NCBI RefSeq assembly: GCF_003334305.1
Contig: NZ_QOWS01000001.1
Origin: Escherichia coli
GTDB taxonomy: Bacteria; Pseudomonadota; Gammaproteobacteria; Enterobacterales; Enterobacteriaceae
DNA: 64,000 nt
Reading direction: 5' to 3' (one strand)
Positions within the stretch are counted from its first letter, which is position 1, and each line of letters begins with the position of its first letter. The position numbers and the translations under genes are program-made. Under the pieces are notes generated by a model, which did not search any database, was not told the origin of the DNA, and worked only from the letters and a program-made list of their open reading frames with translations. This document shows positions 1 through 25,000 of the stretch, piece by piece.

Positions 1-720
1 GCCGGAATAAAAATTCCACACATCGACCAGTCGCAGGAGTCTGATGCGAAATTCCTGACCCGTCTTGCAGAACGCAACGGCGGTGAGGTGTCGGTAAAAA
101 TGGGAAAACTGTTGTTTCTCAAAGCGGGGCAGGGAGTGACGGCCAGCGGTAAAAAAATCCCGCAGGTCACCATAACCCGCAGCGACGGCGACCGCCATCA
201 TTTTGCGATTGCTGACCGTGGAGCCTACACCGGTGTAACGGCAAAATGGCTACACACTAAAGACCCGAAGCCGCAAAAGCAGAAGGTAAAACTGAAACGC
301 AAAAAGAAAGAGAAACACCTGCGCGCACTGGAGCACCCGAAAGCGAAACCGGTCAGGCAGAAGAAAGCGCCTAAAGTACCGGAAGCGCGTGAAGGTGAAT
401 ACATGGCCGGTGAGGCTGACAACGTTTTCGCCCTGACCACGGTATATGCCACGAAAGCGCAGGCCATGCGCGCCGCTCAGGCGAAGTGGGATAAACTGCA
501 ACGGGGCGTTGCGGAGTTCTCTATCAGCCTGGCTACCGGTCGGGCAGATATTTACACGGAAACACCGGTCAAAGTGTCTGGCTTTAAGCGCGTCATAGAC
601 GAGCAGGACTGGACAATCACTAAGGTGACACATTTTCTGAATAATAGCGGCTTCACGACGTCCTTAGAGCTTGAGGTCAGGCTTTCTGATGTGGAGTACG
701 AAACAGAAGATGATGAGTGA
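1..720 (+). CDS. yegZ: Phage P2-like tail protein D (gpD) C-terminal fragment; 5' end runs off the window (cryptic prophage remnant)
   Basis: Reading frame is open from base 1 through stop at 720; translation resembles the C-terminus of P2 gpD; immediately followed by ogr as in the P2 late region. Confidence 0.75.
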   Translation, partial: AGIKIPHIDQSQESDAKFLTRLAERNGGEVSVKMGKLLFLKAGQGVTASGKKIPQVTITRSDGDRHHFAIADRGAYTGVTAKWLHTKDPKPQKQKVKLKRKKKEKHLRALEHPKAKPVRQKKAPKVPEAREGEYMAGEADNVFALTTVYATKAQAMRAAQAKWDKLQRGVAEFSISLATGRADIYTETPVKVSGFKRVIDEQDWTITKVTHFLNNSGFTTSLELEVRLSDVEYETEDDE

Positions 721-801
721 TGTTTTTGTTTTATCTGTTTGTTTTGTAAGGATAAATTAACTAAAATGGCACCATCAACAAAACCGGAAGAGGTGCTCGC
801 G

Positions 802-1020
802 ATGTTTCATTGTCCTTTATGCCAGCATGCCGCACATGCGCGTACAAGTCGCTATATCACTGACACGACAAAAGAGCGTTATCATCAGTGCCAGAACGTG
901 AATTGCAGCGCCACGTTCATCACTTATGAGTCGGTACAGCGATACATCGTGAAGCCGGGAGAAGTCCACGCCGTAAGGCCGCACCCGTTGCCATCAGGGC
1001 AGCAAATTATGTGGATGTAA
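802..1020 (+). CDS. ogrK: P2 Ogr-type zinc-finger late transcription activator (cryptic prophage)
   Basis: ATG at 802 gives 72 aa starting MFHCPLCQHAAHA with CxxC...CxxC zinc-finger spacing; the ORF-track upstream extension (739) is probably not translated. Confidence 0.85.
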   Translation: MFHCPLCQHAAHARTSRYITDTTKERYHQCQNVNCSATFITYESVQRYIVKPGEVHAVRPHPLPSGQQIMWM

Positions 1021-1030
1021 TTACAAACAG

Positions 1031-1058
1031 AAAGCCCCTCAGTCGAGGGGCTTTTTTG
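1031..1058 (+). terminator. Rho-independent terminator downstream of ogrK
   Basis: GC hairpin gcccctc-agtc-gaggggc followed by a T6 run. Confidence 0.6.
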
Positions 1059-1121
1059 TCGATGTGGTCAATGTGTGGACGTGACCAGAAATAAATCCTT
1101 TTATTTCAATTTATTGTACGT

Positions 1122-1208
1122 AAAAAATAAGCCCGTGTAAGGGAGATTACACAGGCTAAGGAGGTGGTTCCTGGTACAGCTAGCATTTTATGGGTTATGT
1201 TTTTCAGC
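1122..1208 (-). ncRNA. cyaR: CyaR (RyeE) Hfq-dependent sRNA
   Basis: Reverse complement reads GCTGAAAAACATAACCCATAAAATGCTAGCTGTACCAGGAACCACCTCCTTAGCC...CACGGGCTTATTTTTT, matching the CyaR sequence including its terminator hairpin and U-tail. Confidence 0.8.
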
Positions 1209-1292
1209 GAAACGGATGATAACCTTAATAAATGCAGCTGTATGTGATCGGTTTCTAAGAATTTTCCATCCGGGAAAAATAATCGAAATTAA

Positions 1293-2654
1293 TCACTTAC
1301 CGTGGGGATTACGCGTGGTTTCCCCGGAGAAATTACGCATCAGCAGCGCGTAATTGAGCTCAAGATCCTGCGGGACCGGGAGCCACACAGTATAACCATC
1401 GCCTGGTGCTATCGGCATAGCTTCGCCTTTGGCGTTTTCCATGTGCTCAAGGGTAAAATTAATGTTGCCTTGCGGCGTCATCAGCTCAAGGCTGTCGCCA
1501 ACGGAGAATTTATTTTTCACCGCTACCGCCGCGAGGTCCCCCTTGCGCTCACCGGTAAACTCACCAACAAACTGCTGGCGGTCAGAAACTGAATAACCGT
1601 ATTCGTAGTTCTGATAATCGTCGTGAGTATGACGACGCAGGAAACCTTCGGTATAGCCACGATGCGCTAGACCTTCCAGAGTTTCCAGCAGGCTGGTATC
1701 GAACGGTTTTCCCGCAGCGGCGTCATCGATAGCTTTGCGGTAAACCTGTGCGGTGCGTGCACAATAGTAGAAAGATTTGGTACGACCTTCGATTTTCAGC
1801 GAATGCACGCCCATTTTGGTCAGGCGTTCTACATGGGCGATGGCGCGCAGATCTTTCGAGTTCATGATGTAAGTGCCGTGCTCATCTTCAAACGCGGTCA
1901 TATACTCGCCCGGACGCTGGGCCTCTTCGATCATAAACACTTTGTCGGTTGGTGCGCCGATACCCAGCGTCGGCTCAACATTTTGCACCGGAATCGGCTC
2001 GTACTTGTGTACGATGTTGCCAACATCATCTTCTTTCCCTTCCTGGACGTTGTACTCCCAGCGGCAGGCGTTGGTGCAGGTGCCCTGGTTCGGGTCGCGC
2101 TTGTTGATATAGCCAGAGAGCAGGCAGCGACCGGAGTAGGCCATGCACAGCGCGCCGTGAACGAAGATCTCGATCTCCATATCCGGCACCTGATTGCGGA
2201 TCTCTTCAATCTCTTCCAGCGACAGCTCGCGAGAGAGGATCACGCGGGTCAGGCCCATTTGCTGCCAGAATTTCACCGTCGCCCAGTTCACGGCGTTAGC
2301 CTGCACCGAAAGGTGGATCGGCATTTCAGGGAAGTGCTCACGCACCAGCATAATCAGCCCTGGATCGGACATAATCAGCGCATCCGGCCCCATTTCCACC
2401 ACCGGTTTCAGGTCACGGATAAAGGTTTTCAGCTTGGCGTTGTGCGGTGCAATGTTGACCACGACATAAAACTTTTTCCCCAGCGCGTGGGCTTCATTGA
2501 TGCCGAGCTGAAGATTTTCGTGGTTGAATTCGTTGTTGCGCACACGCAGGGAATAACGCGGCTGGCCCGCATAAACAGCATCTGCGCCATAAGCGAAAGC
2601 GTAACGCATATTTTTCAGCGTTCCCGCCGGGGAAAGGAGTTCCGGTTTAAACAT
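1293..2654 (-). CDS. yegQ: U32 family peptidase-like protein (YegQ; reported as tRNA hydroxylation factor TrhP)
   Basis: 453 aa ORF; translation matches YegQ family; conserved cysteine-rich C-terminal region. Confidence 0.85.
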   Translation of the reverse strand: MFKPELLSPAGTLKNMRYAFAYGADAVYAGQPRYSLRVRNNEFNHENLQLGINEAHALGKKFYVVVNIAPHNAKLKTFIRDLKPVVEMGPDALIMSDPGLIMLVREHFPEMPIHLSVQANAVNWATVKFWQQMGLTRVILSRELSLEEIEEIRNQVPDMEIEIFVHGALCMAYSGRCLLSGYINKRDPNQGTCTNACRWEYNVQEGKEDDVGNIVHKYEPIPVQNVEPTLGIGAPTDKVFMIEEAQRPGEYMTAFEDEHGTYIMNSKDLRAIAHVERLTKMGVHSLKIEGRTKSFYYCARTAQVYRKAIDDAAAGKPFDTSLLETLEGLAHRGYTEGFLRRHTHDDYQNYEYGYSVSDRQQFVGEFTGERKGDLAAVAVKNKFSVGDSLELMTPQGNINFTLEHMENAKGEAMPIAPGDGYTVWLPVPQDLELNYALLMRNFSGETTRNPHGK

Positions 2655-2756: not shown

Positions 2757-3053
2757 TTAGCTCCAGTGTAAATGTCTGGTGGCGTCCTGGTTTTGGTTAA
2801 GGATACGAATGACGATAATTTCCCCTGGTGATTGCAGGAAATAAATGACGTGGCGTTCAAAAGGAAGAACAAAAATACCTTCGCCTAATTCAGGTCTGGG
2901 CGTACCTATATTATTGTTACTCAGAATCTGGAGAACGTCTGAAAGATGTTCCACATATCTGTCGGCTTGTGGTTCGCCGAAATGGTGATAGCTGTAATAC
3001 CAGATGCCTTCTAAATCCTCATTGGCTTTTGGCATGAGTTTAATAATACGCAC
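2757..3053 (-). CDS. ParE-like toxin (RelE/ParE superfamily) of a type II toxin-antitoxin pair
   Basis: 98 aa from a GTG start preceded by AGGA 6 nt upstream; ParE-like sequence pattern (EDLEGIW...FGE.QA..Y...L...P..G...FERHVIYF...IIVIRILNQNQD); lies 1 nt after the antitoxin stop. Confidence 0.7.
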   Translation of the reverse strand: MRIIKLMPKANEDLEGIWYYSYHHFGEPQADRYVEHLSDVLQILSNNNIGTPRPELGEGIFVLPFERHVIYFLQSPGEIIVIRILNQNQDATRHLHWS

Positions 3054-3054
3054 A

Positions 3055-3306
3055 TTATTTCCTTATCCCTGCTTTCACCTTCCGTAAGAACGCGTCCTTT
3101 TCCCACGGCTGAGCTTCACCACTACTCAACCCTTCTGCGAGCATGTCACGTAACGCTTGCAGGCGAGACTCTGCTTGCTTTTCTCGAAGTAATCGCAGTG
3201 ACTCACGGATCACTTCGCTTTGGGTGCGATAGTCGCCGGATTCAATTAAGGACTCGATAAATTCACGCAACTCATCGCCGAGATCAACCGTCATCGTTCT
3301 GGCCAT
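3055..3306 (-). CDS. ParD-like ribbon-helix-helix antitoxin
   Basis: 83 aa from ATG at 3306 (MARTMTVDLGDELREF...), typical ParD/COG3609 N-terminus; an alternative in-frame ATG at 3351 would add 15 aa. Confidence 0.7.
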   Translation of the reverse strand: MARTMTVDLGDELREFIESLIESGDYRTQSEVIRESLRLLREKQAESRLQALRDMLAEGLSSGEAQPWEKDAFLRKVKAGIRK

Positions 3307-3395
3307 TTTACGCCCGCCTGTAAGTAAAAATCTTACATCAGTGTATGTCATAAACCGGATAGCGTCACGAAAGTATTAGAAGATATTTTGGCACA

Positions 3396-22028: not shown

Positions 22029-25000
22029 TCAGTTAATCGCGAAATAACTGCTATTCACCAGCAAATCCAGCGGTTGGGCATCGGCAATCACATCACCATA
22101 AATCAGATCGACGCCGATGCCAGAAAGCGTATCCATCACTAAGGGTAAAACGACTGGCCCGGCGATGGTTTTCATCCCGAGTCGCTGAGCGTGCCCCTGA
22201 ATAATCGTAATCAGCATCTCATCCATCAAATTACCCTGCACGTTGGCGCATAACTCACCATCAAGTAGCAGGTAATCTGCCATATTCGCTTTCAGCGAGT
22301 TGAAGATTTGCAGATCGCGGCCCACCTGGCTGAGCACTATCCGACATCCCGCCAGCCGCAGTTTTTGCACGCTTTCTGCGTGATCTAAAATCGCGTCTGC
22401 CGGAATAATCAGATGTAATAACCGTGGTGGTAGAGGGCTATTTTCCAGCTGCTCAAGCAGATCATTCACCAGCGTGGCGCTACTCAAACCGGCAACGGAA
22501 AGGGGGAGGGCGATGCTTATGCCTTTACTGGCAACCGCTTTTGCGGCCAGCTGGAAAAATTCGTGGAATACCCGTCGGTCAAGAGCATGGCTAAGTGCCG
22601 GATCGCTGAAGCTACGACGAAATTTTTGTTCATCAATAATCTCGCCTTCGCAACTCCAGAGTTTAAGCGAAATCAGCCACAAATTACGCGCTTCTGGGAT
22701 CCGCGGCGAAGCGACACCGTGGGCCATCATCATCAACTGATTCTCTTTAATCATCCGCCACTGTTCATCAAGCGACATCGCCGCCCGTTCGCTATGTGCG
22801 GCAGCTTGCTGTGGTTCGTAAACCGTCACCCGGCCCCGTCCACCATTTTTGGAGGCATAACAGGCGATATCAGCCTGCGACATCACTTCTGCCGCCTGAT
22901 GATTGTTGTCATCAATCAAGGTAATCCCGGCACTGGCACCTACCCGATGCACACGGCCTTCCCATATAAAGTGATAGTCATTCACGGCACTGATAATGCG
23001 TGTAGCGATAAAACGCGCGCTTTCAACATTACAGTCTGGTAGCAGCAGACCAAATTCATCCCCACCGAGTCGCGCCAGCACGTCGCTGGAACGCAGCATA
23101 CTCAGCATCAACGACGCCAGTTCGCGCAGCAAAGCGTCGCCCGCCGCATGCCCGGCGCTGTCATTCACCGCTTTAAAGCGATCAAGATCGATAAACACCA
23201 GGGCATGTCGCTGATGTGTACTGTTTACCGTTTGCAGCAGCATACGCAGTTGCTTCTCAAAACTGGCGCGATTGGCGAGATGCGTCAGTGCATCATGGGA
23301 GGCGCTGTAGCTCAGCTGGCGCAGCATTTTGCGTGATTCGGTAACGTCCTGAATCACCAGAACCGAACCAATATTGCTGCCGTCCAGAGTACTTAACGGC
23401 GTAATACTGTAATGCACGTCGTAGCTGCCGCCGCTCCGGCAGTGCAACACCACATCTTGTTCAATCGCGGAACGTGAGGTGTCGGCACTGTAAATGTTCT
23501 CCATCAGGGGACCATTGTCGCCAAAGGTAATATGCAACACCGTCAGGAGCGGAACACCTAATGCTTCTTCCTGCGTCCAGCCGCTCATCTTCTCCGCCAC
23601 TGGATTCATAAAGGTAATTTTCATTGCCATATCAATACAGACCACGGCTTCGCCGATGGAGTCCAGCGTTATGTGCAGGCGCTCTTTTTCCTGAAACAAT
23701 GCCTCGTTAAGCTGTTTAACCTCAGTCATATCCATATTAATGCCGAGCAGGCGTTCGACTTCGCCTTCTTTATTCAGTACCCGGTTGGCGAGGGCGCGGA
23801 TATGGCGAATACCGTCTTTTACGGTAATGCGAAATTCCAGTTTAAAGGGCGAGCGTGATTGCAACGAATCACGAATCACTTTTTCGGCATGCTGGCGATC
23901 TTCCGGCAGCACGCACTCGTACCACACCTGCCAGTTCGGTTTGATATGTGGAGGAATTTCATACAGCTCGAACATCCGCTTATCCCAGCTAAAAATATTC
24001 GGCTTCAGCTCCCACTCCCAGATGCCAATCCCGCCCGCTTCGTTAGCCAGCGTGATGCGCTCCATCAGTTGCTGATTCACCTGTTCGGTGCGTTTTAGCT
24101 CGTTAATGTCTTCAATCTGAGCGATAAAATAGAGCGGCGTGCCATCCGTGTGGCGCACCAGTGAGACGGCAAGCAACGCCCAGACAACATCGCCATTACG
24201 GTTGTAGTAGCGTTTTTCCATTGAATAGGTGTTTATTTCACCGCTTATCAGCTTTTCAACCTGTTGGAGATCTTTATTGAGATCCTCCGGCCAGGTCAGT
24301 TGCTGAAAGGTGAGTCCGCGCAGCTCTTCCTGACTGTACCCGAGAAACTGGCAGAGCGCTTTGTTGGTTTGCAGCCATTGTCCCTCGGTGCCCACTAACG
24401 CCATACCGATAGCGGAATATTCCATGGCGTTCCGAAAACGGGTTTCGCTTTCGGAAATGTGTTTGCGTTCCGCACGAAAGGCATACATCACCATCGTCAT
24501 GATGTTGGCGGGCAGCAGGATCAGCAAAAACGGTAGCCACGGCATATGGCTCATCAGGTATGTACGCGGCGTAGCAAGCAGGGAGGGATCCGCGGCCATC
24601 ATCAGCGACACCATCATCACCGTGGTAAGGAAGATCAAAAAGGCTTCCATTCGTGGCAGGCGCACGGCGCTCCACATCAACAGCACAATAATGAAAGTAA
24701 AAGGCCACGGCAGATACAGCATCGAAAGCCAGCTTAACGTCAGTGTGATGGCTAACGTGAGCAGCGACTCAAAAAGCAACCGTGGGTTGCGATGGCGCAG
24801 CAGATAGTGTGGTTTAAATAACAATCCCAGCGGCACCAGTGCCAGAGCGCCGATGGATTCTGACAGTACCCATATCAAAAATGCCCTGAGAGGATCGTCT
24901 CCGGGCGTCAGCAGGACAACCAGAACACCCCCTAGCAGAGGCGGAACAATGGCGCTGCCGAATGCCAGACGCAGCCAGTCAGCCAGATTTTGCAAGGGGT

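Follow-up and report, generated by a model that had tools for sequence, protein, structure and literature searches.

The window, i.e., the whole 64,000-nucleotide stretch of Escherichia coli DNA that was analysed, opens with sequence of phage P2 that passes, through a 27-bp attachment (att) core, into the host genes cyaR and yegQ. Alignment with the P2 genome (AF063097), which the original prediction had proposed for genes D and ogr and for attP, matched window positions 1-1148 to P2 23235-24382 with 99.9% identity; the sole difference was a C/T mismatch at position 429, and the similarity ended at 1148, which is the end of the core. The features of this region, with their window coordinates and strands, are as follows.

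1..720, plus strand: 3' part of P2 gene D (last 239 codons and stop), 99.9% identical to P2 23235-23954
739..768, plus strand: ogr promoter, with the -35 element at 739-741 and the -10 element at 762-768, transferred from the P2 annotation (23973-23975 and 23996-24002); sequence identical
802..1020, plus strand: ogr (annotated ogrK in E. coli genomes), zinc-finger activator of the P2 late genes; P2 ogr 24036-24254
1031..1054, plus strand: rho-independent terminator of ogr and the F operon; P2 annotation 24265-24288, identical sequence
1059..1086, plus strand: annotated Int arm-type binding site (P arm), sequence TCGATGTGGTCAATGTGTGGACGTGACC; P2 annotation 24293-24320
1090..1123, plus strand: annotated IHF binding site of attP; P2 annotation 24324-24357
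1122..1148, no strand assigned: 27-bp att core, attR copy, the same as the last 27 nt of cyaR; P2 attP core AF063097 24356-24382
1122..1210, minus strand: cyaR (ryeE) sRNA gene; Rfam match 1125-1210, with the U-tail continuing to 1122
1130..1157, minus strand: CyaR terminator hairpin by RNAfold, with the 5' arm at 1157-1147, the loop at 1146-1141 and the 3' arm at 1140-1130
1293..2654, minus strand: yegQ (trhP), host gene on the B' side; 453-aa ORF, annotated yegQ/trhP in matching genomes

The region had been described as carrying a C-terminal fragment of gpD followed by ogrK, and both are indeed present (1-720 and 802-1020), but D is a fragment only by virtue of where the window starts. Its translation in the window contains no stops, the start of the gene lies 444 nt before the window, and the full D of the closely matching strain A7 (387 aa), introduced below, is 100% identical to P2 gpD; gene D runs past the edge of the window and is not shortened by a deletion. 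The Ogr product (72 aa) is likewise 100% identical to that of P2.

The core itself, AAAAAATAAGCCCGTGTAAGGGAGATT, lies at 1122-1148 on the plus strand and is identical to the annotated P2 attP core in 27 of 27 positions, in agreement with its original assignment. It occurs only once in the window, even when up to 3 mismatches are allowed, and was found in none of 100 shuffles. Many other P2-like phages are similar to the window through D and ogr only up to position 1108 and diverge thereafter; position 1108 marks the start of the integration-specificity module.

Overlap of the attachment core with the CyaR terminator

The sRNA gene was recognised by the Rfam model RF00112 (CyaR_RyeE) with a score of 100.7 bits (gathering score, 47), covering model positions 1-85 of 85. 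Folding by RNAfold placed at its 3' end a terminator with an 11-bp stem and a 6-nt loop, followed by UUAUUUUUU, which agrees with the Rfam consensus structure; the 3'-terminal 60 nt of CyaR folded at -18.9 kcal/mol, i.e., about 4.7 standard deviations lower than the shuffles (mean -7.6, sd 2.4). Within this structure, the core contains the U-tail (1122-1129), the whole 3' arm (1130-1140), the loop (1141-1146) and two nucleotides of the 5' arm (1147-1148). The proposal that the core is the reverse complement of the CyaR terminator hairpin and U-tail therefore holds for these parts and needs trimming for the remainder, since host DNA of the B' side supplies the 9 nt (1149-1157) that complete the 5' arm.

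The junctions were then compared, with 90 nt taken to the left and to the right of the core, among P2 attP, the empty site of strain SC475, both ends of the prophage of strain A7, K-12 and the window. The attP, attB, attL and attR sites of P2 were reportedly defined by the Bertani and Haggard-Ljungquist laboratories. In our comparison the flanks sorted as P-core-P' for attP, B-core-B' for attB, B-core-P' for attL, and P-core-B' for attR, the last of these in both A7 and the window; at the level of sequence, this sorting is exactly what site-specific recombination predicts. Searches of genomes with an unoccupied cyaR locus, a comparison that the original prediction had also suggested, returned matches that begin at 1121/1122 and extend rightward, with 1122-1300 identical. 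Considering that the match to P2 ends at 1148 and the match to the empty site starts at 1121/1122, the two similarities overlap by exactly the core. This four-way comparison of att junctions bears out the view that the 3' end of cyaR is an integration target of the phage, namely the P2 site locI.

A coincidental similarity between the core and the CyaR terminator, with no role in integration, must also be weighed. Nothing was found in its favour, and its probability is practically nil, considering that all 27 of 27 nucleotides match and that no shuffle produced such a match, that the similarity breakpoints of the phage, the lysogen and the empty site fall exactly on the ends of the core, and that the same core forms the CyaR 3' end in Escherichia as well as Kluyvera species, as detailed further below. 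Our reading, which we hold with high confidence, is that window 1-1210 represents the attR of a full-length P2-type prophage (Peduovirus P2) at locI, between yegR and cyaR/yegQ.

With respect to the sRNA gene, positions 1122-1300, which comprise the core, cyaR and the region upstream of it, are identical among the window, the empty site and K-12; this includes the upstream region at 1211-1300. CyaR itself is the same at every base whether the site holds a prophage, a remnant or nothing. Judged by these sequences, integration leaves CyaR unchanged, and cyaR is intact here. Since the phage and host cores are identical, the gene is restored whichever points of strand exchange are used; for the same reason the crossover leaves no trace, and the CyaR bases that came from the phage cannot be read from the sequence.

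On the basis of established P2 biology, P2 Int, a tyrosine recombinase, would bind the core as well as the arm-type sites in the P and P' arms, IHF would bend the P arm, and strand exchange would take place inside the 27 bp common to attP and attB; excision would additionally need Cox. Integration would thereby regenerate an unchanged cyaR at attR and leave a promoter-less duplicate of the 27-bp core at attL, next to int. Binding of Int to a core and two arms, and the identity of attB with the attP core, have been described (PMC3448106).

A separate possibility, that the core serves as a terminator of the phage int transcript, which runs on the same strand as CyaR, was considered and rejected because no proper hairpin precedes the U-run in that context. 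When the last 60 nt were folded in the attP/attL context, i.e., with P' in place of B', the energy was -9.7 kcal/mol against -7.7 (sd 2.5) for the shuffles, and no terminator-like hairpin was formed.

Extent and gene content of the prophage

The window holds only the attR end of the element, and the remaining ~30 kb of the prophage lie outside it; their presence is inferred from the record of a nearly identical strain. In a population sample of 5,426 complete E. coli genomes, for which all counts given here are approximate, window 1-25000 was 100.0% identical to a single genome, that of strain A7 (NZ_CP028767.1, from orangutan faeces), the next best match being 99.8%. Over the whole 64,000-base window, the comparison with A7 gave no mismatch and a single 1-bp gap, located in a run of G. 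The A7 genome has two perfect cores that together span 31,000 bp and delimit a 31.0-kb P2-type prophage, which has int, C and cox beside yegR, where attL is perfect, and D and ogr beside cyaR. This prophage is collinear with P2 in segments of 6.0 kb (99.3% identity), 12.6 kb (97.4%) and 6.9 kb (97.4%), the collinearity being broken only at two known variable cargo regions, and its Int is identical to that of P2 in 337 of 337 residues.

These results run counter to the original prediction on one major point, namely that the phage sequence is a cryptic remnant. Such remnants are by no means rare: about 360 of the 5,426 complete genomes, K-12 strains included, have one at the same site, in which nothing is left but the tail of D, ogr and attR, joined to a partial attL core; moreover, within the window nothing of the phage is visible beyond the end of D and ogr, as would also be the case for such a remnant. 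However, similarity between the window and the K-12 remnant starts only at 508-514. The remnant has kept ~213 bp of D, which are joined at about window position 510 to part of an attL core beside yegR, so that its left junction reads B arm, partial core (...TAAGCCCGTGTA; also given as ...AAAAAAATAAGCCCGTGTA) and then D. In the window, by contrast, the P2 D sequence carries on without a break leftward of ~510 as far as base 1, which amounts to ~510 bp more of D than K-12 has, and this unbroken stretch at 1-510 shows that the window is not a remnant of the K-12 type. The P arm beside the core also differs, reading TTTCAATTTATTGTACGT in the window and TTTCATTGTATTACGCGT in K-12. Lastly, the only clone-level match, A7, which is a 1-bp indel away from the window, has a complete prophage of 31,000 bp continuing leftward from this point, and such a continuation is precisely what had been named as evidence against a remnant. 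We therefore regard a K-12-type remnant as very improbable here; the prophage is, with A7 as proxy for the left flank, almost certainly full-length.

The gene content of the A7 prophage was compared with that of P2 in its entirety, and 38 of the 42 P2 CDS were matched. Int, C, Cox, B, Orf78-83, D and Ogr showed 100% protein identity, and most of the other genes aligned over their full length at 93-100%, with I lower at 81.7%. No match was found among the A7 prophage genes for the non-essential fun(Z), tin and old, or for G; orf91, also non-essential, matched over just 23 aa. In A7, another tail-fibre assembly gene takes the place of G, and the C-terminus of H has been swapped as well. All late genes except H and G align with P2 at full length, although Q is split by a 1-nt deletion. 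One copy of the cos 19-mer is present in the prophage. In the old/tin cargo hotspot of P2, the A7 prophage (L003 22939-25398) carries the anti-phage pair PD-Lambda-5 A and B, which replaces old, tin and orf91; the two genes were identified by PADLOC with E values of 5e-168 and 3e-121, respectively.

The split in Q deserves attention, as the prophage may be non-viable on account of it. In the A7 record, this portal gene has a single-base deletion relative to P2 (ATGGGTGGC -> ATGGG-GGC) at Q nt 867, which splits the frame, and the gene is annotated as frameshifted. If the deletion is real, the prophage would be full-length but defective ('grounded'), with particle formation blocked by the Q frameshift, and it would be cryptic in function. 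Several observations speak against this. The single difference between the window and A7 is located at window 59949 in wzy, where a G run reads GGGGG in one and GGGG in the other; the wzy ORF of the window (59838-60977, O46/O134-type) is intact, whereas RefSeq marks wzy of A7 as frameshifted. The A7 record thus probably holds at least one indel error, and this homopolymer discrepancy makes it plausible that the Q frameshift is an assembly error too. Furthermore, the other essential genes of P2 are full-length and without frame breaks, with the exception of H and G in the swapped tail-fibre module, and cos and both att cores are perfect. Taken together, we consider a grounded prophage possible but less likely than not.

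Occupancy of the site and its relation to known systems

The locus represents P2 at locI, the preferred site of the phage in E. coli C, and was compared with the reference phage and with the K-12 remnant. The 27-bp core, the P-arm Int site, the IHF site, ogr and D are the same as in P2 at locI (1 mismatch in 1,148 nt), as is the host flank of cyaR and yegQ, and Int, C and Cox of A7 are identical in protein sequence. The differences from reference P2 all fall outside the window: A7 has PD-Lambda-5 A and B in place of old, tin and orf91, lacks fun(Z), and has a swapped H C-terminus and G. The cryptic P2 remnant of K-12 (ogrK and the D' pseudogene) shares with the present locus the site, the attR core, the intact cyaR and ogr; unlike A7, which has all 31 kb, it is without int and all other phage genes apart from these and ~213 bp of D.

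Frequencies at locI were estimated in the same 5,426 genomes. A query made of window 1-1300 was dropped, because P2-like prophages integrated elsewhere also have D-ogr in common with the window as far as 1108 and so pass a cut of 80% coverage; it was replaced by queries of window 1-2000 and 1-2600 and by junction-spanning queries for attL and attB. The long attR arrangement of D, ogr, core, cyaR and yegQ (at least 80% coverage of window 1-2000) was found in ~750 of the 5,426 genomes, and the opposite end, i.e., the attL arrangement of yegR, core and int, was found with its junction-spanning query in 811. At least 80% coverage of window 1-2600, a condition that admits K-12-type remnants, was reached in 1,112 genomes, so that subtraction of the 750 leaves ~360 with a remnant of this kind. 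The attB query matched 4,562 genomes, a figure that overstates the number of empty sites because K-12-type remnants and a variant with an insertion of ~170 bp are joined into one place in it; after approximate correction, ~4,200 genomes are unoccupied. Overall, locI holds a two-ended prophage in ~14% of the genomes, a short remnant in ~7% and nothing in ~77%. By these population figures, the site is in active use and is a common attachment site of P2. The ~170-bp insertion lies in the interval between yegR and the core in some E. coli (e.g., H158-H162 and H183-H186), where the match falls into two pieces and extends over 797 bp as opposed to 627.

Integration at the 3' ends of genes for tRNA, tmRNA and sRNA is shared with a number of other integrases, such as those of phage 186 (tRNA-Ile), of Fels-2 and SopE-phi (ssrA), and of Salmonella phages at ryeB/sdsR. 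There too, the att core and the 3' end of a structured RNA gene overlap, and the copy that the phage brings with it keeps the gene intact upon integration (PMC3448106, PMC3603311, PMC3333887). Unlike the tRNA-like targets, the target at the present locus is the terminator of an Hfq-dependent sRNA, in which the core corresponds to one arm of the hairpin together with the loop and the U-tail. It thus offers a clean and fully resolved case of a phage that attaches where an Hfq-dependent sRNA gene has its 3' end and that restores this gene, a principle already established with tRNA, tmRNA and some sRNA genes.

The targeting of this sRNA gene is already published. In the passage that concerns it, Bobay et al. 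2013, citing Wassarman et al. 2001 and Balbontin et al. 2008, describe E. coli ryeE as 'previously known to be targeted by phages' (PMC3603311), and a similar point on phage targeting has been made for sdsR (PMC3333887). A 2011 survey of P2-like integrases places the P2-type sites 'between other genes' and leaves cyaR unmentioned (PMC3448106). Among the papers searched, none explicitly joins cyaR with P2, and a search for locI/locH returned nothing relevant. The phage and sRNA literatures are poorly cross-referenced on this point, but the fact itself is not new; i.e., the overlap of the att core with CyaR was correctly noted, and it is already known. The finding is an ordinary one and of little consequence outside annotation, in which this stretch should appear as attR of a full-length P2-type prophage at locI rather than as a remnant in the style of K-12, and cyaR as intact.

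The same target in other lineages and possible traces of an older integration

An exact search with 22 nt of the core, in which each species was represented by one genome, retrieved 11 loci. In 10 of these the core forms the 3' end of CyaR, with Rfam scores of 90.7-100.7 bits; they comprise Escherichia lineages, seven Kluyvera loci and one mis-binned contig of a metagenome-assembled genome (MAG) labelled Collinsella. In Kluyvera intermedia (L014 ~900-1061), a diverged P arm of the P2 type, identical to that of P2 in 62 of 73 positions, adjoins the CyaR core; no ogr or gpD was detected by tblastn in the 977 nt of this locus. Given the position of this P arm at the core, a P2-family element, or a remnant of one, occupies the same sRNA target there, and the target is thus used by phages of the P2 family in Kluyvera too. 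The Collinsella-labelled MAG contig (L012) carries a K-12-like P arm, cyaR, and gpD/ogr at 99-100%, and another MAG contig, labelled Citrobacter (L010), carries the E. coli B arm, yegR and the P' arm of attL. Both have P2 junctions of the E. coli type and look like E. coli contigs that were mis-binned into the MAGs.

The empty site was itself found to contain P2-like sequence. In the unoccupied attB of SC475 (L004 2942-2985), and also in K-12 (L005 ~2930-2978) and to the left of position 666 in L015, the B arm contains a decayed copy of the P-arm Int site of P2. This relic, TCGATGTGGTCAATG-GAAGACGGTGACCAG, is located 17 nt to the left of the core and reached a local score of 38, whereas 2,000 shuffles averaged 14.6 and did not exceed 28. 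A further 3 nt to its left lies AAGGGAGATT, which is the same as the last 10 nt of the core, such that the relic and the partial core are both contained within the 47 bp left of the core in empty-site strains. In the cryptic-clade strain Escherichia sp. MOD1-EC7003, the similarity takes in the entire P arm together with the IHF region (56/70). In the divergent 'E. coli' lineage of E69, in which yegS is ~89% identical, yegS directly adjoins the core and cyaR (L009 2448-2540), and typical E. coli have at exactly this integration point an extra AT-rich block of 789 bp (L004 2213-3001) that includes yegR, the partial core and the P-arm relic. These observations would be explained if the unoccupied locI were the scar of an older integration of the P2 family, with yegR left over from ancient mobile DNA lodged at the 3' end of cyaR and the present attB as a former attR. 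We rate this reading as an even bet, the alternative being a flush deletion in E69.

The window also contains two toxin-antitoxin features further along in the host sequence. Between yegQ and yegP, at 2757-3351 on the minus strand, two ORFs of 98 aa encode a toxin of the ParE/RelE family and a ParD antitoxin, a pair that is present in A7 and SC475 and absent from the K-12 locus. At 15329-16134, also on the minus strand, there are three tandem Sib antitoxin RNAs (RF00113, 138-150 bits) opposite three annotated Ibs genes for type I toxins; this repeat appears as a self-match of ~600 bp at 87% identity.
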